Assembly: GCA_913041895.1 (NCBI GenBank)
Contig: CAJWKQ010000001.1
Coordinates: 1-49,547 of the forward strand
Reading direction: 5' to 3'
Length of the DNA: 49,547 nucleotides
Origin: an uncultured Verrucomicrobiales bacterium
GTDB taxonomy: Bacteria > Verrucomicrobiota > Verrucomicrobiia > Limisphaerales > UBA1100
Under the pieces are notes generated by a model that was not told the DNA's origin, ran no database searches, and saw nothing but the letters and a program-made list of their open reading frames with translations. Positions within the stretch are counted from its first letter, which is position 1, and each line of letters begins with the position of its first letter. Shown piece after piece: positions 19,838 through 35,734 of this stretch. A program made the translations under genes and the position numbers.

Positions 19838-21510
19838 TTTTTATCTTCCTTTTTTCGAGATTGAAGCCATTTGCTGTATTCTGCATGAGCGTAGAGAATG
19901 ACATTCCCGCCCAGTCTATAACAAGCCTCATAAATTTGACCCGGCACACCTGCATGACCATCGGCCCATGCATCCCCAATATCACCGGGATGATAATAAG
20001 CAACCATGCGACTTTCAACCACCCAGCCATAAGCAACTCTTCCACCGTGCGGAGCAACAATCGGCAGAAATGGCATCCCATTGTGCACCGGATGATCCAA
20101 CGGAACCTTGATCGGCTCCACCCCTGGCAAAACCTGCCGCATCAAACTAAAAAACTGGCTGTGCCAATTGGAACTACCGCCATTATCTGCAAAAAGCATA
20201 CCGTGCTTATCAGTAAGATATTCACGCAGAACCTCCTTATCCTTGGATGAAATACTTCCCAAGGATTTTTGACCCGTCATGTATACTAGGGGGGGGCTTT
20301 TGCCGATTGGAAAATTTTTCAACTGGTTGATCGTGCGTACCTCCGGTTTGGGGGCAGTTTCGTGTCCTGTGTTAGCTGAATACCATAGGAGCATATTTAA
20401 GTCAGAGTGAAGATCCAAATCCTGATCCCAGTCACCTCCAGCGTACTTGAGACGGATAAACCGCACCTTCCCTCGCTTGGTTCCGCCGGCAAACCCAGCT
20501 CCTTTCCCTTCGCCGTGGCCCGGCTTATAGACATGCTTAGTCAGCTCCAATAGCTGGAGTTTAATTTTCTCTATAGGGGGAGGATTAAACAAAATAGCAC
20601 TGTAAGGGTTTATTACATACTTCTTTTGGATAACTTTTTTTATCTTCACTATCTTTTGCTTCAGCATCTCTTCACCACCACCAGCTGGCAGTTCATAAAC
20701 CTCCCGGCATCCACTCAAGCTAAGAATCAACATCACCATACAAACAAATATAATCGTGTAACTGAAAATGGCATTAAACGATTGTTTCAGCTTTTGCCTA
20801 CTCTTACCATAATACCACGCATCCTGATCAAACGGGTCCCAAGGCTTTATCGCCGGAATAGCCACTGATTGATTCATGGCCTCCAATGGCCCCACCTGAC
20901 CCAGCATCTTTTGTTTACCAGCATAACGCTGTCGTTGCAGTTTCCGAGAACGTCGCTCAACCCCCCACACCACCCATAAAAGCCCACTAATAAAGGCCAA
21001 ACACATACCTCCCTGTGCACACGCAATACGCACCTTTACCCACCCTAAATAATTAGCCCCAAATACCAATCCCTGCCAAATCGGGTAAATACTAATTGTC
21101 AATGCCAACCAATACGTCCAAACAGGCCAATCTCTTTGTTGTTGTTCGACCCTAAAGGTAAAACACACTACCAAGGCCACCGTCGAGCTAGTCGAAAAGA
21201 AAATCAAGAGACCCTGTTCATTTAGATCACTGGCAAATGCCCATTGAATCCAAAGGCCAACCCAAGCGATCCCAAAAGTAACTAAAAATACACCAAGGTA
21301 GATCACAAGACCGGAATTCAAATCTGTTCCGCTAATTTTGTTTCGCAATTTACTCCGCCATAAAACCTCCGTAAGAATTATCCCAAAAAAACCCATCACA
21401 CCTACCCAAAAAGGCCAATCTCGAATAAGGACAGCCTCCACAATTAAGCCGACCCAACAGAACCCCATGAAGAGCGCCCACAAGACCGGAATTTGACGCC
21501 ACTGGCCCAT
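19834..21510 (-). CDS. polytopic membrane protein with a C-terminal DUF4159 domain
   Basis: 558-aa ORF. About 6 hydrophobic helices lie in residues 1-190, and one more (FSYTIIFVCMVMLILSL) follows. Then comes VRFIRLKYAGGDWDQD ... PLVYMTGQKSL..S.KDKEVLREYL..HGMLFADNGG, which matches the DUF4159 pattern as I remember it. Its ATG shares one nucleotide with the upstream TAA stop (21510). Confidence 0.7.
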   Translation of the reverse strand: MGQWRQIPVLWALFMGFCWVGLIVEAVLIRDWPFWVGVMGFFGIILTEVLWRSKLRNKISGTDLNSGLVIYLGVFLVTFGIAWVGLWIQWAFASDLNEQGLLIFFSTSSTVALVVCFTFRVEQQQRDWPVWTYWLALTISIYPIWQGLVFGANYLGWVKVRIACAQGGMCLAFISGLLWVVWGVERRSRKLQRQRYAGKQKMLGQVGPLEAMNQSVAIPAIKPWDPFDQDAWYYGKSRQKLKQSFNAIFSYTIIFVCMVMLILSLSGCREVYELPAGGGEEMLKQKIVKIKKVIQKKYVINPYSAILFNPPPIEKIKLQLLELTKHVYKPGHGEGKGAGFAGGTKRGKVRFIRLKYAGGDWDQDLDLHSDLNMLLWYSANTGHETAPKPEVRTINQLKNFPIGKSPPLVYMTGQKSLGSISSKDKEVLREYLTDKHGMLFADNGGSSNWHSQFFSLMRQVLPGVEPIKVPLDHPVHNGMPFLPIVAPHGGRVAYGWVVESRMVAYYHPGDIGDAWADGHAGVPGQIYEACYRLGGNVILYAHAEYSKWLQSRKKEDKK

Positions 21511-22196
21511 TAATCAATTTTTAACTCACCCAGAGGATCATCGTTATTTTCAAATGGATTTACCTCTACAGGCTTACCCGTTTTTTCTGTATTTACCCCC
21601 AAGACATCGGGAGGATTTACAGCTGGCACTGTTGGAGTCTTGTCAGAAGGATTAACGTTGGCTTCTTTACCATTCATATCGGACTCCAATGTCTTGCTAA
21701 TGGATTCCAGCTTATTCAACATTTTTTTCTGAGCTTCAACGGCCTTCACTTCGGCCCCTTTTTTAACAATACCATATGTGTAGGGTGCAACTGTTAGAAC
21801 TACGAGGAGCAAAAAAATGATACCCGAGGACACTAAGGTACTTAAAACCAATGAACTCTGCGCAACCGCCCCAAGCATTTCACGTGGTGTTTTACCACGC
21901 ATTTCTCGCATAAATGTGCGCAACTCATCAACAGTGACAGAGCTATTTTGCTTAACGTTCTTTAAATCGCGAGAAATACTAGCCATCGATTGCAGCCCTG
22001 ATCCGGCGCTTTCTGGATCAAGGGATACTGCATCGGGAAGTTTTGCAAACAATTCAACGGTGCTCCATTTCTCATCACCTTCACGCAGAGCAGGTGTATC
22101 GGGCTGGATTTGACCTGCCTTTAATAATCCCCTCAACTCACTGGAGGTCAACGGTCCGCGCTGCTCTCCATCAATCACTACGAATATATTGTTCAT
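21510..22196 (-). CDS. GYF-domain (GYF_2/DUF4339-like) single-pass membrane protein in the TonB position
   Basis: 228-aa ORF. The N-terminus IFVVIDGEQRGPLTSSELRGLLKAGQIQPDTPALREGDEKWSTVELF is GYF_2-like. One TM helix spans about residues 112-139. The ~85-aa C-terminal tail has a Pro-containing stretch (KTPTVPAVNPPDV) but no recognisable TonB C-terminal domain. Its ATG overlaps the ExbD stop (ATGA, 22193-22196). Confidence 0.65.
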   Translation of the reverse strand: MNNIFVVIDGEQRGPLTSSELRGLLKAGQIQPDTPALREGDEKWSTVELFAKLPDAVSLDPESAGSGLQSMASISRDLKNVKQNSSVTVDELRTFMREMRGKTPREMLGAVAQSSLVLSTLVSSGIIFLLLVVLTVAPYTYGIVKKGAEVKAVEAQKKMLNKLESISKTLESDMNGKEANVNPSDKTPTVPAVNPPDVLGVNTEKTGKPVEVNPFENNDDPLGELKID

Positions 22197-22600
22197 CTCT
22201 GTTTATATTCCTCCAATATGTGGTGCAACTCTCCTCCTGCTTCGCTGATGGCCTCAATGACGGGTTCAAAATATACAGCTGTCACTTCGTGATGCACCTT
22301 CAGCAACACAGTCCGCCTGCCTGCAACGTTCTCGCCTAAAATAACCTTTAACTCTTCAGATAAAGTAGAAATGGGAATTTCCCGACCATTCAAGTGCGTC
22401 ACGTTGTATTTATCAATCACTACACTCGCGTTCATAGTGGCAGGCCTCACCAATTCAACCCCTTCGGCAGGCTTCCATTGCAAGTGACTATCATCACGTG
22501 CACGCGCCAGAATTACGAAGAAAATTAGTAATAAAAAAGCTATATCCCCCATTGCCATTGCGGGCACCGAAGCATTCATCTGTCTGCGTTTGACAATCAT
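22193..22600 (-). CDS. exbD: biopolymer transport protein ExbD/TolR (paralogue 2)
   Basis: 135-aa ORF. The TM helix carries the conserved Asp (MGDIAFLLLIFFVIL). The periplasmic domain resembles ExbD. There is an ATGA overlap with the upstream exbD. Confidence 0.85.
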   Translation of the reverse strand: MIVKRRQMNASVPAMAMGDIAFLLLIFFVILARARDDSHLQWKPAEGVELVRPATMNASVVIDKYNVTHLNGREIPISTLSEELKVILGENVAGRRTVLLKVHHEVTAVYFEPVIEAISEAGGELHHILEEYKQR

Positions 22601-23019
22601 TGGACCTGTACCGTTTGTTCTTCCTCAAGTTGCAATGTGATCACCCCTCCGGCATCTTCAATAATACCTGTAATATCCATCCAATGACTGTAAGGAACTT
22701 CCTTACGACTTTTTACTGCTACAATCTTGTCTTCTTCGCGTGCTTTATCTGCCAACTTAAGGATAATCGTTTTAACAAAGGTTTCCTTTGGAAGAGGGTT
22801 TCCATTCATTATCACTGCATCCCGAGTTAGCTCTACTTCTATATTCTGGCTTTGCTTGTCTTTTTGTGGCTCCGGTTCACTACGAGGCAGAGTCTGGGCC
22901 CTGCCTTTATCAGGCTCCACCGAAGCGCAAACCAAAAAAAACACAATGAGAATAAAGGCAATATCACTAGTCGCACTAGCTGGCGGCTCAACCAATAATT
23001 TTGTCCGTTTCAGTTTCAA
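22597..23019 (-). CDS. exbD: biopolymer transport protein ExbD/TolR (paralogue 1)
   Basis: 140-aa ORF. The TM helix carries the conserved Asp (TSDIAFILIVFFLV). The TTG start overlaps the ExbB TGA stop (cTTGAaa at 23016-23019). No in-frame ATG lies near the N-terminus. Confidence 0.82.
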   Translation of the reverse strand: MKLKRTKLLVEPPASATSDIAFILIVFFLVCASVEPDKGRAQTLPRSEPEPQKDKQSQNIEVELTRDAVIMNGNPLPKETFVKTIILKLADKAREEDKIVAVKSRKEVPYSHWMDITGIIEDAGGVITLQLEEEQTVQVQ

Positions 23020-23876
23020 GATTCAGGTTTATCTTCTGAATTCAATGTTAATTGCAGAGTAACCGCCTCCATCAATTCTGCAGCGCTTTCCTCTACCTCC
23101 AGCACAAAATTATTTATCACACTAGAAAAATAATTAAACGCCATAAAGGCCGGGATCCCCACCATGAGGCCGAAACACGTCGTTAAAAGAGCCACTTCAA
23201 TCCCTGCGGCAGCTGCCTGAATAATATTGCCTCCACCTGTCTTATCCATTTCCACAATATTATGAAACGCTACAATCATTCCCTGAACAGTGCCGAGAAA
23301 CCCAAGCATCGGCGCAACACTCGACACGATGGCCAATACTGGTAAATGACGCTCTAATGCAGCTACGATGTGAACCCCATAGCTTTCCATGCTCTTAACC
23401 ACCTGTTCTTCCAATCGTGCCGGATCATAATTAAGCCGACTCAAAACCAAATACTTTCGTAACCCATTGGCCAAAATGGCAGCAACCGGCCCGCGCTCCC
23501 TATCACACCGCGCCAAGGCATCTTCAATACGGTCGTTAGTCAGGTCTTCTAAAACAGCCTGACGCAAGGCCTCATTATCAGTATCCAACATCTTGAGGCT
23601 GCGCCATCTTTCAATAATTACAGCCAAAGCCAAGATAGCCATAATTAAAATGGGCCACATAAAAATCCCACCATCAATCAGCAAACCAATGGCCCCTGAA
23701 TCAAAAAATTCTGCAACTGCAGAAGGCTCAGAAGCCGCCTCTAGAGCCTCCTCATTTAAAGCTTCAGTGTTCTGATCCGGATTTGCTTCTGAAGGACCGT
23801 CATTGGTTCCCGATGAATTAGTGGATGCCGCATTTACCTCTGAGATATTAGTCACTTGAGCAAAAAACGGTAACAT
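23016..23876 (-). CDS. exbB: MotA/TolQ/ExbB proton-channel protein
   Basis: 286-aa ORF. A ~55-aa acidic, low-complexity N-terminal extension precedes three TM segments. The signature APMLGFLGTVQGMIVAF is present. Confidence 0.88.
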   Translation of the reverse strand: MLPFFAQVTNISEVNAASTNSSGTNDGPSEANPDQNTEALNEEALEAASEPSAVAEFFDSGAIGLLIDGGIFMWPILIMAILALAVIIERWRSLKMLDTDNEALRQAVLEDLTNDRIEDALARCDRERGPVAAILANGLRKYLVLSRLNYDPARLEEQVVKSMESYGVHIVAALERHLPVLAIVSSVAPMLGFLGTVQGMIVAFHNIVEMDKTGGGNIIQAAAAGIEVALLTTCFGLMVGIPAFMAFNYFSSVINNFVLEVEESAAELMEAVTLQLTLNSEDKPES

Positions 23877-23923: not shown

Positions 23924-26900
23924 TCAATTATCATCGTCTATGGAATTAGCCTCACTCTCAAATTGGGCCAACATTTCAGGTAAAGCCAAACGACCTCTTG
24001 CATATTTGGCAGCCTCGCTTTCAGGAAAGTCCCACCGACAGCGATTATACCTACGAAAAGCAAATGAAACATTGTTAGCCCCTCTGAAACTTTCCCCAGC
24101 CCAAAAGAGAGACTGAGCAGTCAGTCCGTCATCCGGAAACTTCTTGGTAAACAAATCGAAAACCACTCCTGCCTCGGCAAACTTTTCAGCCTTGTAATGG
24201 CATTGGCCCCACCGGAAACACATTTTTGGAGCAAATTCATGATCCGCAAATCGATCCATAAATTTTTCAGCAACTTTTGCTGCCACCGCATAATTCTCAC
24301 GTTTGTAGAAATACTCATTTATTCGTATCATTACATTGGGAATCAAGGGGCTCTTTGGATAGGTTGCAGCTAAAGTGACGTACTCCTCTAAAGCACGATC
24401 AAAGTCATTAGCCTCTTCATAACACTGGGCCAGCTTATACTGTGCATCAGCTGCTAGGGTATGATTCGGATATTGTCTCACGATTAATGCATAGCTGTTA
24501 GCTGCCGCATTCCAGTCCTGCAATTCTTGGGAAAACTGTCCGCTAAGATAAGCAATTCGAGGCAAGTATTTTGGGTCTGGATAATCAACCATGATCTCTT
24601 TGAGAATACGGCGCCCCGCCTTCAAAGCCTTTTGGCTCTCATCTTTTCTCTCCAGTTTAAGGTTATTTTTAAACAACTCAAAATAGCTTTCAGCGATATG
24701 AAATTGCGTTTGGACGGCCAGCTGCTGATTGCCAAATATTTTGCTAAATGCCGAAACAATACCGTCCGTTCCTATAGCAACAGGCAGTTCAATTGTATGA
24801 TCACCAGACGTCTCCACATCCCTCGCGGACTCATCCGAGTACTCAGCAGTAATTTTATCACCAAAGAAACATTCAATCTCCTTATCAATCTCACTAAAAT
24901 TGGCCGGTGTTGGCTTTTCCCGAGCTTTGAGCTCAAATGAGCCGGTAAATATCCCGCTGTGACTTAAGGTCTCATTGAGTTTCACTGATTCCTTTTCTCC
25001 ACTTTCGCTTTGAATAACGATGCTTGAAAAATCCCGCTCATCAGAAATGTCCAAATCTGGATCTGCAACCATCACAAAAAGCTTTTCTCCAACATGCAAT
25101 ATTTCAACTTTTTCATCATAACCCTCATTGGTAACAGATAGACTCCCATTTGTTTTTAATACAGCCTGATCAGATAAATCCAGCTCCTCTCCTCCTGGGC
25201 GCACCTTATCTTGATAGGATGCATTCAAAATCGATTTACCATTTACATTTAGCACAGTATCTAACAAATCATCTCCATTCTGTTCCTCTTCTTCTTCACC
25301 AGCAGGACGCACTCGACCAATCAACCCATTGCCACTACCCAAGCCGCGCGGCAGTTTTACGGGACTCCCTTCTCCTCCCAGTTGCATTTTAACCTGCCCC
25401 ACAAACCTTCCCATTCGTAATGCAGGGTTTGCCTGACCTTCATCAGTTCCTGAAAAATCTCCAAACTGCGTAGAAAGTGTACAGATAACTTCAACTGCAT
25501 TAGTCGTTCCAGCATTAATTAAAACCTTAACCTTACTTAAACTATCCTTTGCAGCATCTGGATCAATGACTTCAACAGTCAATGGAACAAAATAATCGAC
25601 ACCAACAGGACCTTCCTGTCCTTCCATTCGACGAAGATAGACCGGCTGAGGTAAACCCTCTGAACCCGCTGGCGGCTGTGTGCGGCTCGTGCCAATGATG
25701 CGCACCAGTCCTTCAGTAGGTTCATTGGCAAAAACCACTCCTTCGCGAACCACCGAATGCCCTGGAAAAGTGTTTTGCAAATCTGAATATCGGCAAAAAA
25801 TACTGTCACCTGGCTTGATTCGAAGTTTGTCAGTCTCTTCTAAAGTTGAGGTCTCCACTTCGACACGAAAAATCCCGGAATATTCCTCAGTCTCCGTAGC
25901 CTCCATATTCTTCCATTTGTTCCCGTTTAGCCAAATTTCCACAGGCACAGTATCGCGCTGATCAGTTTGATCCATGTCATAATCAACCACCTCAAAGGTA
26001 ATCCGATCTCCCGCATCCACTCTAAGCAACTCCTTACGAGTCTGAGCAACGCCACCTCCTGAATTTCTAGCGAAATCAAACCCTATAGGCACCACCCGGG
26101 CATCATTGTAAGTTGCCTGCAGGTTTTGAGTGAGCAACCGGCTGCCTCCCTTGGTCGCCACTGCAGTTTCATCAGTGTAACTAGCAAGAACCACGTCTCC
26201 CCCAGCAATTTCCAGCGTCTTATTCTCTGCAAGCTTACTGACGTCCACCTCGGTAGGAATGAAAACACTATTCTTATTTGCCACCTCAATATGATTAACC
26301 GCAACCGAATCTCCAAGATATTCATCTATCTGAAAACGTGCATAACGCAACTGGATAGGCTTAAAAAAGAACTCCCACTCTCGGTCACGCTGTATCACTC
26401 CTGCTCCTGAAGCCGGGCGCAACTCGATGCCGGACAAATCCATAAGGACAGCTCCCACAATTTCCAATGGTTTAATGGTAAGGATTTGTGATCCCGCCGC
26501 ATCAACCTGCACCAATCCCACCCGTTGCCAAGCAAAACGGTGAGGGTCACCGGTTTTTTGCACCGTTGCCTCTATCATCTGATCTCCGAATTCCAAACGG
26601 AACAGTGAGCCTCCCTCGATATGCGCTGAATTCACCCAAACCTCATAAGCACCGGGTTGTTGGGCATTAAAGGCCCATTTGAGCCAATCACCAGGCTTTT
26701 GCCAATGATGAACCCTTTTAACCTTATTTAGTTCACCAGCAGCAAACTCCTCCGTTTCCTTTTGCAACTCCACCTTATCTAAATCCATCACCAATGTTGT
26801 AGCTTTGGAACCATTTCTCTCAGGCTCATTACCAAAATATTTCTTGGCTGCCTCAAGGTCGAAATCAGCCTTATTAAAAGGTTTCAATTGGGGCTGTGCA

Positions 26901-29900
26901 CTACTTGAATTGGCCCGCGCACGAGTAGCCGAAAGACCAGATGACCCTTTTTTTGCCGCGGCAAAAATCGTAAGGTCATGGATGCCTGCAGTTAGCCATA
27001 CATCCACTTGTTTGATTTCACTGGATGGAGCTAGCTGAACCTTTCCATCCACAGCCACAGCCACTAAATCACCCTTTACTCCGATACGCACCGCCCCTTC
27101 ACGCGGCTGGATCAACTTTCCGGCCCATATTGCCGCAACCGGTTTGACACCATTTTCATCCCCTTCTTCCGGGTTCCAGGATAACTCTAAAACCTCATTT
27201 GTAGTCGCCTGTGTTGTACGCGCCAATCGGGCAACTTGCGCCCAAGTCGTGTATGAGGTATGGTCCCCCTTGTAGATCATTTGTTTCATCACTCCGGACT
27301 TTTCCAAAACAGTCTGCGCGTCTTGAATTCGAGGCTGAGCTGCCAAGGTAAACCAAAAGACCCCATCATGACTGCCTAACAACCGTCCTCGTACTGGAGC
27401 ATGGTCTCCCGCATTAGGCGTATTTATTCTTATTCTCGAAATCTCATGAAGTTGCTTCATGTCAACGGTTAAAGCCTTTGGTGTTTGACCATCTGGCTCA
27501 CTCTGCCAGTAGGATTCTCGACTATGATCTATTGCCATCAACGGATTGTGGTCAATGGCACTATCGGAAGCGGAAGCACCCGCTGGAAGTTCAGCAGTCG
27601 GAATAGCTGCACGAAACTCCCCGGTATGCGGCCCGGTTTCCTTTAATTCCACCTGCACCTGATCACCACTATCCGCCCTTAATGTCACCGTTAAGAGATC
27701 TTCTTGATCTCCAAAATCCCGATCCTTATCGCGAATACGTAGAAAAATCCGGTTACCTGGCTTCACCTCATTTGCAGGCCTGCCTTGAGAAACGCGCCTG
27801 TCCTCCTCAGCTTCCTCTTTTTGTTCCCTTTCGAGCTGTTTAGTCAGAGTTTCCTCTTCTTTATCAACGATCTCACTACTGGCCACATCAAACTCCCCAT
27901 CTGCAGCCACACGAATCTCGACGTCACTTAAGGGAACAGTTCTAAACTGCTTTTTAAAATCATCTGGATAATCACTCAAAATGACATCCTTTCCAGTTAT
28001 CTGTAAAACACCATCCTCAGGAGCTACAGAACCCAATCCCGTATCTATCTCTCCTCTAAATAGCCCTTTACCTGCGCCAGAACTACTCCGCAACAAGACC
28101 TTCTCTCTATCACCCCCTGGCTTTGTCGTAACAATAACCGGAATGGTATTTTGCCCGCGGCTGACACCTAAATCTCGATCGTGAACTACAATCGATAAAG
28201 CATTTCCGGGAATATGAAGCCTTTTACTGCTTTGGCCCAATCGACCAACGGTACGTAGTAAATTTAATTGCTGAAGATACCGTTGTTCGAGCCCATATAT
28301 TTCCGACAAGCTAAAAAGAGTGCGATTGGCCAGCTCCACATCGGGCACACGTTCTAGAATATGTTGAAACTTTTCACGAGCTTCATCGCGTTGATCCTGA
28401 CGAAACGCCAATAAGCCTGTTAAAAACTCTGCTCGAATGGAAATTTGCTGATCAGGATTTTCCTCGAGCACCTTAAAAGCCTCTGCGGCTTTATCATAAA
28501 TCTTTTGCGCCATGAAAGACTCTCCAATACCAAACTTGGCCTCAATGGCATGAGGCGTCCCACTATAGCGGTTAGTTACCGTAGAATACTCTACTCGAGC
28601 CACATCAAATCGCTGCCCTTTGAAGTAACTCTTGGCCAAGAGAAGCTGTAAGCGCGCCTTTGCATCTTCACTTTGTTGTTTACTCTCGGGCTTTTCAGGA
28701 TCGGTAAACTTGATGAGCCAACCCCTCAAAATATCTTCCACAGCTGTCAAGCGCTCCTCATCCCCGCCAGTCATAAGATAGTTGCAAACGAACTCAATCA
28801 GGTCGGGCGGAAGGTCATTGCGGTGTTTTTTAAATAACTCCACATTTGACTGATATAATTCCAAAGCCTTCTCACGGTCCCCCAAACGGAGGTACAAGGC
28901 TGCCTGCAACAGAGGCGCCATCGGACTATCTTCGTCAATTGTCAAACCTACCGCACCCATTCGGGAATGTGCCCTTAAGACAGCACTACGACCTTCGCTC
29001 TTGCTTTCCTTTGATACACTAGATACATGCGCCAGTGCACCGGTCAATAATGTCGCACTCTCCATATACCTTTCCTGTTCAAACGCCTTTTGTGCATAAC
29101 TACGGAAAGTATTCCAGCGATTCTGGTCGTTATGAGTATACTTGGTAGCCCTAAAGAGGCGCTGCAAACGGGCTACAGGCAACTCCTTATCAGCACCGCC
29201 TCCCAATAAATGGTCACAAGCCGCCCATGCAGAATAATCAGAACCTCTTAAATCCTGAATAGCCTGATAGACTGAAAGCTTTTGACCATCATCCAGCTTT
29301 TTGAAATTCTTGTAGGCTGGATTATCCCCTTCTGTATAAGTCTTATTGTTTAGAGCGAACTCCCTCCAAGTCCCAGCAAATCCCCGCCAGTCCTCATTTA
29401 CAAAAGGTAAATCCGAAGCCGTCTGCTGGATCTGAGTGATAGCTCTGGAAAAACCAGCTGCATCCCCTTGTAATCGTAAAATATCAGTAGCCTTGTGAGC
29501 CGCCACTCGAAGAGTTAACTCCGGCCAGCGATTCTCTACATGTTCGCGCCATGTTGCAGGAGGATTTCCTCCGTTAACCAAAAAGCGTTCAGCACAGGTT
29601 CGCTCCTCTGACCGCCCTTGTGTAGGCATCTGGGAAATTCGCTTCCACCAGTCCAAAGCCTGTTTTTTTTGATTCAATTTCCACAATACATCGCCGGTGT
29701 AATCTGCATAAATTGAGCTCAAATCTCCCTTGATAGCCCATTGATATATCTGGTTAGCAAGATTGGCATCCTGAAGACGTTCGGCCACCTGCATTAAGTC
29801 TCGTTGAAAAGAATAATTAACCCGACCTTTGGCTGGCGGCATGCGCAAAGCTTGTTGCACAATCTTCTTGGCCTCACTTTTATCTTCATCACTGCCACCC

Positions 29901-31873
29901 ATGTATAATGATAAAAACCCGTGAGCCGCATCATGATTCTTGGGATGTTTTTGCCATAGCGTTCGAGCTATAGCGCGAGCAGTCACAGGATCCTTCTTCT
30001 TGACATAGGCAACCAGCGCATGCCTTTGAGTTCCAACTAAACGCAACTGATTCGCGGAACTCAAACTATTAAACTGCTTCAATGCTTCTGCACGAAGCGG
30101 AACGGCCTTAGCTGGATTATCTTGTGGGCGGGGATATTTCAGCAACGCCTGAACCAATGACTCTCTATTCTGAGCGGCCAACTGATCGCCCACAAACTTG
30201 GCTTTAGCACGTTGATCCTTGTTGCTCTTCATCGAAGAAACCCAGTTGCTGACATAATCCCGATAATAGGTGGTCGTCAGATAATCGCGCCGCTCTTTAA
30301 GCAGCATTGCAACATCCTTACGAAACTGATCACCATCTGGCTGACCAGTAAGTAAATCATTAATGAGGGTCTGCTGATTAGAGCTATACAAATGAGTTTC
30401 TCTGGAAACTTCACGCGCATGAGCAAGCGCTTTGGCCTCATCCTTCACGCGTTCACGGTAGAGCGTACGCGACAAGGCATAGCGCAAAGCCAGAATAGCA
30501 CCATAATTCTTAGATGCCTTAGCCTTACCGACAGCTGTATTTAAAGCACGATCGGAATCGGTCACTTGTTTGCGAAATTTAGCCTCTGCATCACGAGCTG
30601 AAGCTTGCGCCTTTTGCAACTCTTGTTGTCGCTGCTGAACCAGTTTAGTCGCCTCAACCAAAGCTGTCTGGGCAGCTTTCCTAGCCTCTGGACTACCTGC
30701 TTTATTGAAAGTATCACGCTTGGATTTTTCATCAGTCTTCGCATTTTCGAGATTCTTTTGGGCTTCAGCTTGAGCGCTCACAGCCTTGCCTCGGGCAGCA
30801 TTAGCCTCATCCACCATCCAAAGAACGTAATAGTAGGCCATATTCCCGGAATTGGCTGCGTTAGCCAAAGCTGGCTGAATCGATCCGGCAGCTAAAGTGG
30901 GGTTATTTTCACGTGCATGAGCATGGCCTACATACAAAAGAACCTCCCACCTTCGTCGATCATTTGGGAATTTAGCCGCCATACCTCGTGCTTCACTCTC
31001 GATTTGTTGAGGCTTCAAGCCTGCGTTATGCATGTATGATATTTGTGCTGCATAAAGAGCGGAATCGTCCTTAAAGCTGCGCGCCTTTCGCATACTTTCC
31101 ACTGCATTGGCCCATTGACTTTGTGAGGCGTAACTTTGCGCCATTAAATGATGCAGTTCGAACTGCTGGGTGCGGTTTAATGGCAAACGTTTTTGAATTA
31201 GTTTTTGCGCAGCTTGATTAGACTCTGCCCAACGCGAAATAGCCCTGTATTCGGTAATTGCCCTAAACCCCGCCCGTACGGTGTAGGGACTGGCTGGAAG
31301 CTTTTCCATCATGCTCCCACACAGCTCAGCCGAACGAATTCTCAAACGAGTATTCCCTTCCTGCCCGTAAAGCTCAGAAGCCCTTTCGGCGGCCTTACGG
31401 TTACCGACCCCAGGTTTGTGTTCCCACAAAAGCCGCAACACATCTGCCGCTTGGGATCGTTTACGATCACGCTCCAATCCATCAGAGACACGCAAAGCAA
31501 CATCAAGGGCTTCAGTTGAATCCGGATAACGAGTAAGATACTGCCGGCCTATGGTTATAAGCTCATCTCGTCGCCCCATGATCTCCAGCCCATCGACCAA
31601 TTTCAACATTACCTGACGATGCTGGGCGTGACGGCTTTGAGCCTTCACAAAACGCTCAGATACTCGCACCAAACCAAACACACGCCCCTCATTATAATAC
31701 AAGTCCACGAGCTCAATCATGACCTTCGCCCCCTCTACAGAGGTGTCGAGCGACTTGTTCAATTGAGCTTCAAGAGCCGTAGCCTTTTTATCGATAGCAC
31801 TCGGCTCATTCTTGTCCACAGCCATTGAAAGCAATGGCATGAGTAATAGAAAAATAGTTATTGGTTTTATCAT
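23924..31873 (-). CDS. secreted giant (2649 aa) TPR / beta-module / TPR protein
   Basis: A single uninterrupted ORF with the signal peptide MIKPITIFLLLMPLLSMA. An all-helical TPR-like region of about 1210 aa spans 31873 to ~28230. A beta-rich region of about 1160 aa (~28225-24740) contains discoidin (F5/8 type C)-like, PA14-like and CBM-like stretches plus repeated acidic modules. The C-terminal ~270 aa are YbgF/CpoB-like TPRs (LIVRQYPNHTLAADAQYKLAQCY, LAATYPKSPL, FTKKFPDD). Confidence 0.85.
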   Translation of the reverse strand: MIKPITIFLLLMPLLSMAVDKNEPSAIDKKATALEAQLNKSLDTSVEGAKVMIELVDLYYNEGRVFGLVRVSERFVKAQSRHAQHRQVMLKLVDGLEIMGRRDELITIGRQYLTRYPDSTEALDVALRVSDGLERDRKRSQAADVLRLLWEHKPGVGNRKAAERASELYGQEGNTRLRIRSAELCGSMMEKLPASPYTVRAGFRAITEYRAISRWAESNQAAQKLIQKRLPLNRTQQFELHHLMAQSYASQSQWANAVESMRKARSFKDDSALYAAQISYMHNAGLKPQQIESEARGMAAKFPNDRRRWEVLLYVGHAHARENNPTLAAGSIQPALANAANSGNMAYYYVLWMVDEANAARGKAVSAQAEAQKNLENAKTDEKSKRDTFNKAGSPEARKAAQTALVEATKLVQQRQQELQKAQASARDAEAKFRKQVTDSDRALNTAVGKAKASKNYGAILALRYALSRTLYRERVKDEAKALAHAREVSRETHLYSSNQQTLINDLLTGQPDGDQFRKDVAMLLKERRDYLTTTYYRDYVSNWVSSMKSNKDQRAKAKFVGDQLAAQNRESLVQALLKYPRPQDNPAKAVPLRAEALKQFNSLSSANQLRLVGTQRHALVAYVKKKDPVTARAIARTLWQKHPKNHDAAHGFLSLYMGGSDEDKSEAKKIVQQALRMPPAKGRVNYSFQRDLMQVAERLQDANLANQIYQWAIKGDLSSIYADYTGDVLWKLNQKKQALDWWKRISQMPTQGRSEERTCAERFLVNGGNPPATWREHVENRWPELTLRVAAHKATDILRLQGDAAGFSRAITQIQQTASDLPFVNEDWRGFAGTWREFALNNKTYTEGDNPAYKNFKKLDDGQKLSVYQAIQDLRGSDYSAWAACDHLLGGGADKELPVARLQRLFRATKYTHNDQNRWNTFRSYAQKAFEQERYMESATLLTGALAHVSSVSKESKSEGRSAVLRAHSRMGAVGLTIDEDSPMAPLLQAALYLRLGDREKALELYQSNVELFKKHRNDLPPDLIEFVCNYLMTGGDEERLTAVEDILRGWLIKFTDPEKPESKQQSEDAKARLQLLLAKSYFKGQRFDVARVEYSTVTNRYSGTPHAIEAKFGIGESFMAQKIYDKAAEAFKVLEENPDQQISIRAEFLTGLLAFRQDQRDEAREKFQHILERVPDVELANRTLFSLSEIYGLEQRYLQQLNLLRTVGRLGQSSKRLHIPGNALSIVVHDRDLGVSRGQNTIPVIVTTKPGGDREKVLLRSSSGAGKGLFRGEIDTGLGSVAPEDGVLQITGKDVILSDYPDDFKKQFRTVPLSDVEIRVAADGEFDVASSEIVDKEEETLTKQLEREQKEEAEEDRRVSQGRPANEVKPGNRIFLRIRDKDRDFGDQEDLLTVTLRADSGDQVQVELKETGPHTGEFRAAIPTAELPAGASASDSAIDHNPLMAIDHSRESYWQSEPDGQTPKALTVDMKQLHEISRIRINTPNAGDHAPVRGRLLGSHDGVFWFTLAAQPRIQDAQTVLEKSGVMKQMIYKGDHTSYTTWAQVARLARTTQATTNEVLELSWNPEEGDENGVKPVAAIWAGKLIQPREGAVRIGVKGDLVAVAVDGKVQLAPSSEIKQVDVWLTAGIHDLTIFAAAKKGSSGLSATRARANSSSAQPQLKPFNKADFDLEAAKKYFGNEPERNGSKATTLVMDLDKVELQKETEEFAAGELNKVKRVHHWQKPGDWLKWAFNAQQPGAYEVWVNSAHIEGGSLFRLEFGDQMIEATVQKTGDPHRFAWQRVGLVQVDAAGSQILTIKPLEIVGAVLMDLSGIELRPASGAGVIQRDREWEFFFKPIQLRYARFQIDEYLGDSVAVNHIEVANKNSVFIPTEVDVSKLAENKTLEIAGGDVVLASYTDETAVATKGGSRLLTQNLQATYNDARVVPIGFDFARNSGGGVAQTRKELLRVDAGDRITFEVVDYDMDQTDQRDTVPVEIWLNGNKWKNMEATETEEYSGIFRVEVETSTLEETDKLRIKPGDSIFCRYSDLQNTFPGHSVVREGVVFANEPTEGLVRIIGTSRTQPPAGSEGLPQPVYLRRMEGQEGPVGVDYFVPLTVEVIDPDAAKDSLSKVKVLINAGTTNAVEVICTLSTQFGDFSGTDEGQANPALRMGRFVGQVKMQLGGEGSPVKLPRGLGSGNGLIGRVRPAGEEEEEQNGDDLLDTVLNVNGKSILNASYQDKVRPGGEELDLSDQAVLKTNGSLSVTNEGYDEKVEILHVGEKLFVMVADPDLDISDERDFSSIVIQSESGEKESVKLNETLSHSGIFTGSFELKAREKPTPANFSEIDKEIECFFGDKITAEYSDESARDVETSGDHTIELPVAIGTDGIVSAFSKIFGNQQLAVQTQFHIAESYFELFKNNLKLERKDESQKALKAGRRILKEIMVDYPDPKYLPRIAYLSGQFSQELQDWNAAANSYALIVRQYPNHTLAADAQYKLAQCYEEANDFDRALEEYVTLAATYPKSPLIPNVMIRINEYFYKRENYAVAAKVAEKFMDRFADHEFAPKMCFRWGQCHYKAEKFAEAGVVFDLFTKKFPDDGLTAQSLFWAGESFRGANNVSFAFRRYNRCRWDFPESEAAKYARGRLALPEMLAQFESEANSIDDDN

Positions 31874-31891: not shown

Positions 31892-34267
31892 TTAAAATCC
31901 GGATTTGGCTAAAGCTTGGGAAATGCGCTTGGCTTCTGGTGCAAGTTGACTCTCAGGAAATTCATCGATCAATTGATCGAAGCGCTTACGTGCCTCAGCA
32001 CGACGGTCTAGCCGAAACAAACACCGACCGTAGTTAAAGAGAATTACATCTAGAAAATTTGCATCTGGATGGTCAGAAAGAACTTTTTCAAAAACATCGA
32101 CTGCCCGCCCATAGTCTTTCTTTTGATAATAGAAGCTGGCCATTTTTGCCACCGCATCACCCACTCTTCCGCTTTCGGGATGTTGGTCAAATACCATCTT
32201 GTAAGCCTGAAAGGCACGTTCATACATTTGCTCAGCATTTCCTCGCGCAGCCTTGGCCATATCTTCATAACATTCCCCAATTCCATACTGCCCTTCCCCG
32301 CGCAGTTGACTTTTAGTCAAACGGGTAAGATTCGTATATAAGGCAATCGCCCGGGCAAAGTCGCCTGACTTCTGTGCAACACGAGCCTGTTGCAAAATGG
32401 CCTCGTCCAAATAGATGCTTTCAGGAAATTCACGCTGCAACCTAAGGCTCATTGCGGCAGCTAGATTGAGTCGATCCATGGCGAAATAAATCCGCCATAA
32501 TTGGACATACGTTTCCTCGAGTAACCCGCCGCCAATCTTGCGCGCTTCAGCAGCAATTTCCTCGCAAACGCCCAATGCCTCCTCGTATTTCCGCTGAGCC
32601 TTATCATCCAGTCCAAAATCCCGATATTGTGTTCCTATTTGAGTCAAAGCACTGGCAGTTTTTAATTTGGTTTTTAATGCCAATTCCGCATCTCCAATTT
32701 CAGTGCGAGTCACTCGGACCCCCCCTAGATTACCTTCAACACATTTGGCTGCTGCAAACAGATCACGGGGACCAGCAGAAATATTAAGAGCATCCTGATA
32801 GCTCACCCGAATCAAATCACCAGATTGAGCCTGCAGCTTGGCATCATCATTCACAACGTTGGACTCAGACTCTACGGGTATTGTGCCACGAAAAAGTCCC
32901 GTATGAATCGTCCCATCCTTCTGCTCCTGATTAATCTCTTCAACCAAATCATCACCTAATCCTGGAGTCTTGGCTGTCTGCGCAGGAGGCTCGGCAGGAG
33001 TATCTTCAGGCTCCCTCTGTCCCGAATCTACAGGTTTAGTAATAACTTTTTCCTCAGGTTTCTTTTCGGACTCCTTCAAGATCATTTCCACTGTATCCAC
33101 GACCTTGAACGGGTCGACTTGCACTTGTTCCTCAACTGGCTCAACTCCCGGAACAACCGGTGCAACAGGTTTCTCCACTGGAGCTGGAGACACAATTGCT
33201 CCTTCTGCAATGAGTTTTGCCTTTTCTTCTTCTATTTCTACAGGAGTTTTTTGTCGGAGCACCTGCACTTTGACTTTTATAACGTCTGATTTATCACTGA
33301 CATCACGATCAGCATCGCTGACTTGAATGTTTGCTTCCTTGCCCAATACGACCCCCTGAAGTGCTTCAGAAAATGCTCCGTCCATTACCTGAACCAATGC
33401 GTTCCCGACCACAGTCACTGCTTTTTTACGATCCACATTAAAAGCACGGTCTGCTGTATGAGAGTCCACGTAATCAACCTGAACCTTAGCCGTGCCAGTC
33501 ACTTCAATGATCCCATTACCTTTTCTGGCCTTGCCTAGTCTTGTGGGGATAGAACCTAAAACCACTCGAACATTACGACCCACCGGAAGACATTCAACGG
33601 TTTCCTCATCTCCCTGAGAAGTTCGCACCTTAATGGGCACTGTTTCATTTTTTTCAAGAATCGCCAAATCAGCATCCTCGATTTTTACGAAGAAACGTTT
33701 CCCTGCCTCGAGTTTTTCGGCATTCTGATCCTTCTGCCCCACAGCAGTCCCCACTTTTTCCAAGGCTGATATCGACCGGCCATAATGACCCTGTTTGAAA
33801 TGGCCAAGACCAATATAGTAATAAGCCTCATTAACCTGTTCAGCCACGGGAAATTCTTCAATCACCTTACGCATCACCTTAAAGCATTGGCCATAGTGTC
33901 TGCCTTCAAAAAGACATACGCCCATCTTCAATGTCGCTAAAGCGCGTTGTTCGGTGTCTGTGTTTTCCTCTCCAGCAACTGTTTCAAAATGAGCGCGCGC
34001 CTTGTCATAGGCATTGCCCTTGGTTAAATGATGTTCACCAAGCTTCAGGTGCGCTTGATACCTAACCTTACTGCGCGGATAACGCTCAACCACCGATTGC
34101 CAAATCTCCAAGGCTTTCTCCTGCTCCCCCGCATCATAACGCAAATCACCTGCTTGAAGGAGCTTACGTGCTGCTCGATCCTCAACAATGGAACCTCTAA
34201 CCGGAGCTCCAGCCTGAAGACTCAATGAAAGACAAAAGGCAAAGAGAATTAAAACCCTTGAAATCAT
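31892..34267 (-). CDS. secreted TPR / beta-module / Pro-rich linker / TPR protein (first gene of the operon)
   Basis: The ORF track starts at a TTG (34372). The ATG at 34267 gives the signal peptide MISRVLILFAFCLSLSLQA. YbgF/CpoB-like TPRs occur at both ends (VVERYPRSKVRYQAHLKLG; VFDQHPESGRVGDA; LSDHPDANF; LIDEFPESQLAPEA). The centre holds beta modules and a Pro/Glu/Lys/Val-rich linker. The stop lies 18 nt before the start of the giant gene. Confidence 0.8.
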   Translation of the reverse strand: MISRVLILFAFCLSLSLQAGAPVRGSIVEDRAARKLLQAGDLRYDAGEQEKALEIWQSVVERYPRSKVRYQAHLKLGEHHLTKGNAYDKARAHFETVAGEENTDTEQRALATLKMGVCLFEGRHYGQCFKVMRKVIEEFPVAEQVNEAYYYIGLGHFKQGHYGRSISALEKVGTAVGQKDQNAEKLEAGKRFFVKIEDADLAILEKNETVPIKVRTSQGDEETVECLPVGRNVRVVLGSIPTRLGKARKGNGIIEVTGTAKVQVDYVDSHTADRAFNVDRKKAVTVVGNALVQVMDGAFSEALQGVVLGKEANIQVSDADRDVSDKSDVIKVKVQVLRQKTPVEIEEEKAKLIAEGAIVSPAPVEKPVAPVVPGVEPVEEQVQVDPFKVVDTVEMILKESEKKPEEKVITKPVDSGQREPEDTPAEPPAQTAKTPGLGDDLVEEINQEQKDGTIHTGLFRGTIPVESESNVVNDDAKLQAQSGDLIRVSYQDALNISAGPRDLFAAAKCVEGNLGGVRVTRTEIGDAELALKTKLKTASALTQIGTQYRDFGLDDKAQRKYEEALGVCEEIAAEARKIGGGLLEETYVQLWRIYFAMDRLNLAAAMSLRLQREFPESIYLDEAILQQARVAQKSGDFARAIALYTNLTRLTKSQLRGEGQYGIGECYEDMAKAARGNAEQMYERAFQAYKMVFDQHPESGRVGDAVAKMASFYYQKKDYGRAVDVFEKVLSDHPDANFLDVILFNYGRCLFRLDRRAEARKRFDQLIDEFPESQLAPEAKRISQALAKSGF

Positions 34268-34422
34268 GGCTACTTGGACGTGAAAAAATAGTCTGTTTAT
34301 CACTTTATTTACGAATAGGCGGCACCGTTTTATATGCAAACCGGGTGCGGCATTAATTCTAGCCTCAGCCAAACCAAAGGCAACCTAAACCCCCCTACTT
34401 ATTGCTGAAATATATTGAAAAT

Positions 34423-34454
34423 AAAAAGCCCCGCCTATGAAACAGCAGGGCTTT
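34423..34454 (-). terminator. intrinsic terminator after the DUF1501 gene
   Basis: The minus strand reads AAAGCCCTGCTGTTTCATAGGCGGGGCTTTTT. This gives a stem of about 11 bp (including two G-U pairs) followed by a T-run, 18 nt after the stop at 34472. It separates the DUF1549/DUF1501 unit from the TPR/ExbBD operon. Confidence 0.8.
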
Positions 34455-34471
34455 AAAGACGGAGTATAATT

Positions 34472-35734
34472 CTATCCAAAGAGCTCTATAACCGGCTTAG
34501 CTCCCTCACTCACGAGTCTCATGGGCCTACCGAGGGGCGTTTCCACTTCCTTCGAATGATCAATACCCAATGCATAGCAGATACTCGCATGCAAATCATG
34601 AGGGTTAACTGGCCTTTCAGCAGGCATTATGGCGTCCTCATCAGATTTACCAATAACCTGCCCACCTTTAATTCCCCCACCAGCCATGAAGCAACTAAAA
34701 CAACGGGCATGATGATCTCGCCCCGCATTGCTGTTAATTCTTGGAGTACGCCCAAATTCACTGAGAACAATTACCATGGTTTTTTCGAGTTTCCCACTGG
34801 CAGCCAAATCCTCCACTAGCGAGGCCAAGGCTGGATCCATAATATCCCCATGGTTTTGCATCGCAGGAAAGTTGTTATTATGGGTATCAAACCCACCCCT
34901 GTTTACCTGCACAAAACGCACGCCAGTCTCTACCAATCGTCGTGCCAAAAGTGCTCCCCGACCAAAATCCGTATCACCATATCGGGCAATAGTCTTGGCA
35001 TCTTCCCCATTAAGCTCGAAGGCCTTTAATGCAGGGCTGCGCATCAAATTGACCGCTTCCTTGGTTGCCGTATTGACTGACTTGGACTCTTCCACACTAA
35101 GATTGCGTGCATTGCGCAAATTCATTTTGGCTAGCACATCCAGCCGTTTATTTCCGCGCATCTGAGTAATACCCGCAGGGAACGCTAGATAAGGATCCTT
35201 CTCACCAGGACGGCCCACATAATACGCCTCACACTTTTGGCCTAAATAGCCAGCGCGCCGCGCATTGCCACTAACGGTAATAAAAGCAGGCAAATCACCA
35301 AGACGCTCCTTTTCATGAGTCACGATAGAGCCAATTCCCGGATGAACCAGATTACCACTCTCGTTATAACTGGTTTGCAACTGATAAGACGCACGCCCAT
35401 GGGCCCCATTTGTTCCCGCAATAGATCTAATTAGTGCAGCGTGATGCATCTGCTTGGCCAGCTTAGGGAAAATGCCACTAATTTGGATGCCATCTGCAGA
35501 TGTACTAATTGGATCAAATTCCCCGGCAACCGGACGACCGGGCTTAGGATCCCATGTATCAATATGGCTCATGCCGCCACCACACCAAAAAAGAATGACG
35601 TGCTCGGCATTGGCCTGTTTTGCTTCACCAGCACGGGCTAACATTTGAGCTATGGGCATTCCGAGCAATGTCGCACTCGAGAGCCCCAGCATGCGCCGGC
35701 GGGTCATTTGGTAATCAAGGCATCCTTGGTTCAT
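34472..35734 (-). CDS. Tat-exported DUF1501 (sulfatase-fold) protein
   Basis: 420-aa ORF with the twin-arginine signal MTRRRMLGLSSATLLG. DUF1501-type motifs are present (DTWDPKPG, GGFDTHNN, NAGRDHH). An alternative ATG lies at 35707. Confidence 0.82.
   Translation of the reverse strand: MNQGCLDYQMTRRRMLGLSSATLLGMPIAQMLARAGEAKQANAEHVILFWCGGGMSHIDTWDPKPGRPVAGEFDPISTSADGIQISGIFPKLAKQMHHAALIRSIAGTNGAHGRASYQLQTSYNESGNLVHPGIGSIVTHEKERLGDLPAFITVSGNARRAGYLGQKCEAYYVGRPGEKDPYLAFPAGITQMRGNKRLDVLAKMNLRNARNLSVEESKSVNTATKEAVNLMRSPALKAFELNGEDAKTIARYGDTDFGRGALLARRLVETGVRFVQVNRGGFDTHNNNFPAMQNHGDIMDPALASLVEDLAASGKLEKTMVIVLSEFGRTPRINSNAGRDHHARCFSCFMAGGGIKGGQVIGKSDEDAIMPAERPVNPHDLHASICYALGIDHSKEVETPLGRPMRLVSEGAKPVIELFG

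Follow-up and report, generated by a model that had tools for sequence, protein, structure and literature searches.

The stretch of DNA considered here (the window) comprises 49,547 nucleotides from an uncultured Verrucomicrobiales bacterium (GenBank assembly GCA_913041895.1, contig CAJWKQ010000001.1, positions 1 to 49,547 of the forward strand). It carries a giant gene (23924-31873; as with every feature of the window given below, on the minus strand), which runs in a single frame from an ATG start over 2,649 codons and is followed directly by the genes of a proton channel of the MotA/TolQ/ExbB family and of two ExbD/TolR-type proteins. We consider it probable, with moderate confidence, that the giant protein acts in the periplasm as the glycan-binding scaffold of an envelope machine driven by the proton-motive force (PMF) in bacteria of the Planctomycetes-Verrucomicrobia-Chlamydiae (PVC) group. 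An earlier interpretation of the window, made from its letters without database searches (the sequence-only reading), had pointed to the giant gene and its motor neighbours. The cluster is larger than that reading saw, comprising ten genes that recur in hundreds of species of Planctomycetota and Verrucomicrobiota.

The giant gene and its conserved cluster

Translation of the window shows zero internal stops over the 2,649 amino acids (aa) of the giant open reading frame (ORF). A word-indexed search with the full protein returned 36 relatives of 2,319-2,769 aa, and an exhaustive search with the C-terminal 278 residues as query returned 310 cluster representatives at E ≤ 1e-30, many of them 2,100-2,984 aa long and matching at their extreme C-terminus. 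Since these many full-length relatives (2,100-2,984 aa) are spread over many 50%-identity clusters, the ORF cannot be put down to a fusion or a frameshift, and the uninterrupted 7.95-kb frame described in the sequence-only reading is real, intact and no artefact of assembly. Across representative genomes, each species being scanned once, more than 543 loci encoding a family member were counted. The nearest relatives (58-90% identity) come from metagenome-assembled genomes of Verrucomicrobiales and 'Pedosphaera', and Planctomycetota retain the entire 1,196-residue central region at 42-49% identity. Planctomycete carriers include Pirellulaceae, Planctomycetaceae, Phycisphaeraceae, Schlesneria, Rubripirellula and Fuerstiella, and one carrier with a complete genome is Anatilimnocola sp. 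NA78. The labels that databases attach to the family are only "TPR repeat protein" (TPR, tetratricopeptide repeat) or "TolA-binding protein", none of which assigns a function.

The conservation of the gene's surroundings was assessed by comparing the window proteins with 84 fetched loci by tblastn, downstream counts being taken from the 46 loci with at least 7 kb of downstream DNA. The ExbB gene lies directly after the giant gene at 43 of the 46 loci, and further downstream the first and second ExbD genes (ExbD1 and ExbD2) are found at 38 and 39 of them, a DUF4159 gene at 39, a last TPR gene at 34 and the gene of a small membrane protein at 31. The exbB-exbD-exbD neighbours named in the sequence-only reading are thus confirmed by Pfam directly downstream, and orthologues of the giant gene do keep this linkage. 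On the other side, a first TPR gene precedes the giant gene at 51 of 52 loci and a DUF1501 gene is found directly upstream, on the same strand, at 50 of 54 (48 of 62 in a second count), with a PSCyt2/PSD1 gene upstream of DUF1501 at all 48 loci where that DNA is visible. Pairs of DUF1501 and PSCyt2/PSD1 genes are massively paralogous, and uncharacterised, in Planctomycetes. The median identity of the DUF1501 proteins counted here (66%) speaks for orthologues rather than chance paralogues, and the pair of the window seems to be orthologous and fixed in its tie to the motor operon.

The resulting ten-gene order is PSCyt2/PSD1, DUF1501, TPR, giant, ExbB, ExbD, ExbD, small membrane protein, DUF4159 and TPR. 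From ExbB through the last TPR gene the coordinates overlap by 1-4 nt, and the gaps around the giant gene measure 18 nt and 47 nt. Relatives at 25-38% identity show a second arrangement, namely giant, TPR, TPR, ExbB, ExbD, ExbD, small protein and DUF4159. The cluster is near-universal in the sampled Planctomycetota and present in many Verrucomicrobiota, and the copy of the window stands among housekeeping genes.

Architecture of the giant protein

The most conserved part of the giant protein is its C-terminal TPR domain (23924-24760, aa 2372-2649 plus the stop codon), which retains 60-70% identity in planctomycete relatives. The NCBIfam model TIGR02795 (tol_pal_ybgF) matches the protein in five stretches with 127.5 bits, above its cut-off of 90.1, and the CpoB structure 6g5s in the PDB matches the C-terminus at 3.3e-6, so that the CpoB/YbgF-like repeats proposed from the sequence are well founded. 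The likeness to the Tol-Pal protein CpoB/YbgF lies in these C-terminal 280 aa and in the adjoining genes of TolQ/TolR type. In other respects the two proteins differ, CpoB having about 260 aa and the giant being ten times larger and endowed with a beta core as well as lectin modules; NF008068, the model for CpoB over its full length, gives the giant only 54.4 bits, the cut-off being 383.

The central region was modelled with AlphaFold2 (AF2) from aa 1205 to 2400 on the basis of 33 homologues, with a mean pLDDT (predicted local distance difference test) of 80.4. According to the DSSP assignment of this model, aa 1217-2366 are all-beta except for one charged helix at aa 1343-1356, which agrees with the beta-rich central segment of about 1160 aa noticed earlier. 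Foldseek searches with the core model gave the Nitrosopumilus S-layer protein 8c8m as best match (E 1e-21), further matches including chains of alpha-2-macroglobulin and complement, and strings of immunoglobulin (Ig)-like domains dominate among them; these matches refer to the model as a whole, with no assignment to individual modules. The NCBIfam S-layer family Kustd1514 also matches aa 2254-2353 (E 1.5e-5), far below its cut-off. A motif search revealed at least four copies of an Ig-like repeat, V.D.D.D...D..V.V....G....V.L.ET..HSG.F.G, starting at aa 1228, 1378, 1960 and 2267. The first belongs to a beta-sandwich at 27881-28225 (aa 1217-1331), defined by DSSP and by the motif V.D.D.G......V.V....G....V.L...G.F.G, and the second, supported in the same way, lies at 27575-27748 (aa 1376-1433) and carries RIRDKDRDFGD...ETGPHTGEF; the peptide ET[GE].H[TS]G.F ranks among the two best-conserved peptides of the giant family. 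The copies at aa 1960 and 2267, together with a degenerate one at 2098, form part of an Ig-like, S-layer-type beta array (24776-26215, aa ~1887-2366; AF2 DSSP and Foldseek), which is conserved in P0268, a complete relative of only 1,166 aa.

A set of lectin-type modules is located between the second Ig-like repeat and this array. It begins with the N-terminal two thirds of a discoidin (F5/8 type C) domain at 27329-27574 (aa 1434-1515), where Pfam PF00754 matches aa 1434-1512 with 31.3 bits (gathering score 28.2) over positions 3-82 of the 127 of its hidden Markov model (HMM), and the same family matches 32 of 38 homologous central regions. The discoidin domain recognized in the sequence-only reading therefore stands, as opposed to the second discoidin-like tail which that reading placed further downstream. 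The latter segment (26276-26380, aa ~1832-1866, IQLRYARFQIDEYLGDSVAVNHIEV) corresponds to the C-terminal strands of the same domain, as indicated by a splice test and by the alignments of relatives. Joining aa 1827-1872 to aa 1425-1528 raised the PF00754 score from 32.5 to 39.6 bits, a gain of 7 bits, and extended the coverage from 3-82 to 3-115. Moreover, the discoidin is contiguous in the relatives P0034 and P0036, where it spans HMM positions 4-115 with no insertion, and P0034 aligns to both discoidin halves of the giant, leaving a gap of ~310 residues exactly over the modules in between. The splice gain, the contiguous domains and the gapped alignment together argue for one split discoidin, in which, judging from these comparisons, a PA14-like domain and a module resembling the carbohydrate-binding module (CBM) families 6 and 35 form a nested insertion of ~310 aa within a loop.

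The first half of the insertion is a beta domain at 26864-27328 (aa 1516-1670, core ~1530-1655), for which a separate AF2 model was obtained with a pLDDT of 90.9 and a predicted template-modelling score of 0.87. When this model was compared with the PDB by Foldseek, nearly all of the ~45 top matches were PA14 domains (best E 1e-5), with query-normalised TM-scores of 0.51-0.63 and a probability of 1.00. Among them were the PA14 domains of the Marinomonas ice-binding adhesin (MpIBP), an RTX adhesin, RsgI3 and the yeast Epa/Flo adhesins, as well as the PA14 inserts of glycoside hydrolases of families GH31 and GH3 and the anthrax protective antigen. The segment is accordingly modelled with, and in our view has, a PA14 fold, in line with what had been proposed from its sequence; the agreement holds at the level of fold, every sequence test having been negative. 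Pfam PA14 (PF07691) has no match at E ≤ 1 in the giant or in 38 homologues, a family profile of the region, searched against the PDB, matched none of the PA14 chains, and in a comparison with five PA14 sequences hhalign returned a probability of 6.5%.

The second half of the insertion is probably a CBM6/CBM35-type beta-sandwich (26399-26773, aa ~1701-1825), an assignment made earlier from the sequence and carried here by the family profile. The latter was built from aa 1692-1872 of 38 homologues and, searched against the PDB, matched 8zvk at 7.5e-13 and the C-terminal module of a GH29 enzyme at 6.9e-5, and more weakly the CBM35 2w1w, from an esterase of Clostridium thermocellum (1.3e-3), and the CtXyl5A CBM6 2y8k/5g56 (0.02). 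Within the 38 homologues, Pfam assigns DUF5077 to 18, CBM_6 to three (best 1.8e-5) and CBM_35 to 2 + 2. The central core is thus made of lectin-type and Ig-like sandwiches, that is, of the carbohydrate-binding and adhesion-type folds that had been suspected there. Modules of this kind, i.e., PA14, discoidin (CBM32-like), CBM6 and CBM35, are known from adhesins and glycoside hydrolases, which those of the window match by fold or profile; the window copies differ in belonging to a non-enzymatic periplasmic scaffold and in the nesting of PA14 and CBM inside the discoidin.

The composition of this lectin cassette varies across the family. It is reduced to the discoidin in P0034 and to a weak discoidin match in P0036, and P0212 has no lectin-type family on record. 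The large P0193 (2,984 aa) carries two discoidins and a PA14 domain, and the distant relative P0035 has a true Pfam PA14 domain (72.6 bits) at about the same place, with no discoidin at E ≤ 0.001. P0268 aligns to residues 1073-1447 and 1859-2642 of the giant, without counterparts of the first ~1,070 residues or of any part of the lectin cassette, but its gene lies within the same operon. From these alignments, the core of the family is one TPR block, the Ig-like repeats and the C-terminal CpoB-like TPR domain, and the lectin block is a dispensable, lineage-variable cassette, more likely a specificity module than a structural tether. As the cassette is swapped or absent across lineages while the operon stays fixed, it is the ligand specificity that the cassette most likely sets. 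At the short-form loci (L085, 16478-19501; L086, 14074-17097) the operon is followed directly by Tad/Flp pilus genes (prepilin peptidase A24, TadE and Tad).

The same modules could suggest that the protein is a stand-alone secreted or S-layer-like adhesin, standing beside the motor genes by accident. Surface adhesins typically have discoidin, PA14 and CBM modules, the strongest structural match of the whole core model is an archaeal S-layer protein, to which the weak match with the anammox S-layer family can be added, and motor genes are absent at 3 of 46 loci. This explanation is nevertheless extremely improbable in our judgement, because both phyla keep the gene order, in one or the other of two arrangements and even where identity falls to 25-38%, and the genes are translationally coupled. 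In addition, TPRs like those at the two ends occur in periplasmic assembly factors, and the Pfam and NCBIfam scans gave no type IX secretion system, PEP-CTERM or autotransporter domain.

The scaffold that we favour would be exported by a predicted Sec signal peptide (31820-31873, aa 1-18), read from the translation as MIKPITIFLLLMPLLSMA followed directly by VD. By eye there is no lipobox cysteine, and the hydrophobic pattern is retained in the family consensus; the Sec signal of the sequence-only reading is upheld to the extent of this by-eye judgement. The N-terminal region behind it (28226-31819, aa 19-1216) is probably helical, with similarity to TPRs in parts. A TPR block is verified at its end (28304-28921, aa ~985-1190) by Pfam (TPR_16 at 1077-1140, TPR_21 at 1071-1177, TPR_7 at 990-1009), by PDB consensus-TPR matches at aa 1079-1198 and by alignment to residues 73-190 of P0268, on which grounds it can be counted as part of the conserved family core. 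The sequence-only reading had taken aa 1-1210 to be helical throughout and rich in TPR-like repeats. When hhalign was run on successive parts of the family alignment against the TPR blocks already verified, similarity was found at aa 81-200 (95%) and, weakly, at aa 261-380 (67%), and aa 981-1190 are TPR by both Pfam and hhalign; from aa 380 to 980 no TPR signal was obtained in this comparison, and the claim is verified only in part. The Lys/Ala/Gln-rich stretch (aa ~360-440) falls where the family alignment has no consensus. Chou-Fasman propensities computed over the family alignment failed to separate the known beta core from the TPR regions and were discarded. The N-terminal ~1,070 aa are probably an accessory extension, likely helical, without counterpart in the 1,166-aa relatives.

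Products of the surrounding genes

Motors of the TolQR/ExbBD type are known to energise the import of nutrients (Ton), the integrity of the envelope (Tol-Pal) and gliding (Agl-Glt). The motor of the window consists of the ExbB channel protein (23016-23876, 286 aa; PF01618 at 3.4e-25), ExbD1 (22597-23019, 140 aa) and its heterologous partner ExbD2 (22193-22600, 135 aa), the ExbD pair matching PF02472 at 4.2e-13 and 3.2e-9 and both members keeping the transmembrane (TM) Asp, in SDIAFILIVFF and GDIAFLLLIFF, respectively. Against NCBIfam, the channel scored best with tolQ (107.6 bits, below the equivalog cut-off), followed by exbB with 66, and ExbD1 reached 31.5 with tolR and 19.8 with ExbD. As none of the motor proteins attains the equivalog cut-off of tolQ, tolR, exbB or exbD, they represent a distinct subfamily.

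The higher scores of tolQ and tolR would fit a Tol-Pal-like system acting in envelope integrity or division, in which the giant would be an oversized CpoB coupling the motor to peptidoglycan synthesis or outer-membrane constriction, the lectins binding peptidoglycan or another envelope glycan. TIGR02795 matches three operon proteins, of which the giant and the 826-aa product of the first TPR gene exceed its cut-off, and the near-universal presence of the cluster in sampled Planctomycetota and in many Verrucomicrobiota, as well as its position among housekeeping genes, would suit such a role. Some PVC species are also reported to have no recognisable TolA or TonB (PMC12204202). On balance, this explanation is unlikely. 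All Tol equivalog scores lie far under their cut-offs, the cluster has no TolA, TolB or Pal, nor were they found among the scanned ORFs of the window, and the trimerising N-terminal coiled coil of CpoB was undetected in the giant (NF008068, 54 against 383). A lectin cassette that is swapped between lineages or missing would be unexpected, too, in a structural tether.

The gene after ExbD2 encodes a small single-pass membrane protein (21510-22196, 228 aa; Pfam GYF_2, the remainder read from the sequence), laid out as a cytoplasmic GYF domain, one TM helix and a Lys-rich and Pro-rich periplasmic tail. Its topology resembles that of TolA, TonB and GltJ, without the C-terminal domain of TonB, and its conserved core is a juxtamembrane motif with the TM helix. 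The GYF domain occurs only in Verrucomicrobiota versions (206-223 aa), most planctomycete ones being of 145-170 aa with the juxtamembrane motif, the TM helix and the tail.

This protein brings to mind the Agl-Glt machinery of Myxococcus, in which the periplasmic TPR proteins GltD and GltE are proposed to carry force across the periplasm. Both systems combine a motor of TolQ/R type, in which two different TolR-like subunits occur, with large TPR scaffolds in the periplasm and a GYF-bearing single-pass protein. Were the cluster a motility or adhesion machine of this kind, the giant and its TPR partners would correspond to GltD/GltE, ExbB/ExbD/ExbD to AglR/Q/S and the GYF-TM protein to GltJ, with force delivered to a surface adhesin. 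The best NCBIfam match of the small protein is indeed gliding_GltJ, and the Tad pilus genes that follow the operon in L085 and L086 could be taken in the same sense. The sequences show no detectable relationship beyond generic TPR and GYF domains, however, the GltJ match amounting to 18.8 bits against a cut-off of 450 and involving the GYF domain only, and GltE giving 14.8 against 225. No Glt family in NCBIfam matched the giant, the planctomycete small proteins have no GYF, and the cluster lacks a TonB-like C-terminal domain, the GltA/B/H/K barrels and a CglB-type adhesin. Moreover, the taxa with the cluster are not known as gliders, and we regard this equivalence as very unlikely.

The next gene encodes a polytopic membrane protein of 558 aa with a periplasmic DUF4159 domain (19834-21510; Pfam PF13709). 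With a mean column identity of 67% across 31 loci, this C-terminal domain exceeds every other protein segment of the cluster in conservation. Its family profile found only a weak match among PDB sequences (4i66, E 0.012), and the single sequence gave nothing usable. The stretch at aa ~245-275, behind the last TM helix, carries a lipobox-like motif and, next to it, a mature end that is conserved (LSLSGC, then REVYEL), and the pattern GC(Q/R/S)E(I/L)YE(L/M) was met at 22 of 48 loci with a strict regular expression. Some relatives exist in a short form only (358-385 aa), which would start near this motif, and the DUF4159 domain may be a lipoprotein in some lineages. The operon ends with an exported TPR protein of 536 aa (18227-19837), with TPR and YbgF-type matches in Pfam and NCBIfam. 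In the window it is followed by a gene for a protein combining an FGE-sulfatase (SUMF1-like) domain and a planctomycete cytochrome c domain (16666-18108), which is probably foreign to the system and was rejected as a member, since it adjoins the operon at no more than 2 of 31 loci.

Upstream of the giant gene, the first TPR gene (31892-34372) is an ORF of 826 aa whose product comprises TPRs, an Ig-like beta domain, a Pro/Glu linker and again TPRs. The listed TTG start is probably wrong; a Met codon 35 codons downstream (34267), the likely start, precedes a signal peptide. The protein is a smaller, paralogue-like scaffold and looks like the giant in miniature, with YbgF-like TPRs and one or two Ig-like domains that carry the giant's motif D.D.D...G.F.G. 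Further upstream lie the DUF1501 protein (34472-35734, 420 aa; Pfam PF07394 at 8e-104), with a twin-arginine signal (MTRRRMLGL...), and its partner, a PSCyt2/PSD1 (DUF1549/DUF1553) protein of 708 aa identified by Pfam and carrying a Sec signal (35762-37888). Between the DUF1501 gene and the first TPR gene, a consensus scan pointed to a terminator-like hairpin at 34425-34454, with an 11-bp stem (6 G-C pairs) followed by a T run. The ten-gene block may accordingly consist of two transcription units split at this hairpin; the scan of the region for promoter and terminator consensus sites gave a site total no higher than in shuffled sequence.

Proposed function and relation to known systems

In the model that we put forward, ExbB and the ExbD heterodimer would turn proton flow into movement of a membrane-anchored transducer, for which the small TM protein and the DUF4159 protein, alone or together, would be the candidates. 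In Tol-Pal, CpoB docks on TolA, and the CpoB-like TPR end of the giant would similarly dock on the transducer. The string of Ig-like domains would provide a spacer long enough to span the periplasm, and the lectin cassette would hold a glycan. Rather than acting as a generic structural tether, the cassette would capture or pass on a polysaccharide at the outer membrane or in the periplasm, and the fact that it varies while the machine remains constant favours such substrate capture and hand-over over a fixed tether to peptidoglycan. As for the ligand, imported nutrient glycans are at least as likely as an envelope polymer. The sequence-only reading had imagined a protein bridging an envelope polymer to the energised inner-membrane complex. 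Its TPR/beta/TPR mosaic and its link with an ExbB-ExbD-ExbD operon are retained here, and the structural tether that it implied has become less likely given the dispensable cassette.

Several observations weigh against this model. We infer the interaction between giant and motor from synteny and from the CpoB-like TPR domain, and the linkage has exceptions. Besides the three of 46 loci where no motor genes follow the giant gene, there are four where ExbB is followed by unrelated genes. A paralogue of 2,415 aa (P0030; L001, 10001-20048) keeps the upstream TPR gene and is then followed by genes for a MoxR-type AAA ATPase and a VWA protein, which suggests that the scaffold can couple to a different set of partners. 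The cluster encodes no TonB/TolA C-terminal domain, outer-membrane barrel, TolB or Pal. Regarding glycan binding, no sugar-binding residues were identified in the lectin modules, and a reading of the sequence found no Asp-Asp pair within aa 1529-1826 for the Ca2+/DcisD site of PA14 lectins. In the CBM region, the giant protein itself matches only DUF5077, with 20.8 bits against a gathering score of 24.6, and thus lies below threshold when taken alone.

A locus of this type has been noticed before. In a survey of periplasmic force transducers published in 2025 (PMC12204202), an uncharacterised TPR gene of PVC bacteria is described as standing ahead of a tolQ-like gene, a heterologous pair of tolR-like genes and candidate transducers tethered to the membrane; as presented there, the locus is of unknown function and no deletion phenotypes are reported. 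The window agrees with that description in taxa and in gene order, including the membrane-anchored proteins with a periplasmic globular domain. [quoted passage not shown] When the sequences of the latter two were read, no His was found in their TM helices, and Pfam assigns the DUF4159 protein to DUF4159, not to VWA. Section 8 of the survey and the legend of its Fig. 4 are silent on the size of the TPR protein, on its beta core and on the lectin cassette.

A functional lead comes from the mucin utilization locus MUL1 of Akkermansia muciniphila, described in papers citing Davey et al. (2023) as a periplasmic complex required for mucin transport and for the intracellular accumulation of mucin products. 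According to the gene data given for it, mul1A (Amuc_0544) encodes a 120.8-kDa 'TPR_2 repeat protein' of COG1729, the YbgF/TolA-binding group, and lies beside genes for ExbD/TolR (Amuc_0546) and MotA/TolQ/ExbB (Amuc_0548). The two loci thus share the order Verrucomicrobiales and a TPR protein of COG1729 type next to ExbB/ExbD genes, and 'TPR_2 repeat protein' is also the JGI name of relatives of the giant. Mul1A is, in contrast, less than half the size of the giant, its gene order as given is TPR, hypothetical, ExbD, hypothetical and ExbB, and the genes listed there do not include DUF4159, with Amuc_0549 annotated as endonuclease III. No Akkermansia protein was present among the matches to the full giant, to its C-terminal TPR domain or to the 1,166-aa short form, nor among ten matches of ~1,000-1,400 aa that were looked up by name, and the majority of the matches of ~1,100 aa were fragments of giant proteins. 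The link to MUL1 is consequently presented as a lead on function, with no assignment to a common family. A gene for indole-3-glycerol-phosphate synthase (39259-40047 in the window; Amuc_0552 in A. muciniphila, where MUL1 is at Amuc_0543-0548) stands a few genes from the TPR/ExbBD cluster in both genomes, a faint hint at a common ancestry of the neighbourhoods.

A more far-reaching and rather speculative possibility, which we hold to be doubtful, is that the ten-gene cluster constitutes a PVC-specific, PMF-driven system for the capture and import of whole polysaccharides or glycoproteins, with the giant as recognition arm, the cassette as determinant of the substrate range and MUL1 as a reduced relative. 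Planctomycetes take macromolecules into an enlarged periplasm, and marine Verrucomicrobia show 'selfish' polysaccharide uptake. If this polymer-import view were true, the cluster would represent the long-sought machinery behind both.

In summary, the locus pairs a motor of the TolQR/ExbBD type with a very large, lectin-bearing periplasmic scaffold, with no recognisable TonB/TolA C-terminal domain or outer-membrane receptor, and the cluster is kept as a block in hundreds of species of two phyla in which little is understood of the biology of the envelope and of the uptake of polymers. Through the variability of its lectin cassette, the protein offers an experimental handle on substrate specificity, and the possible link with MUL1, if true, would tie a system of marine and soil bacteria to a trait that matters for colonising the gut.

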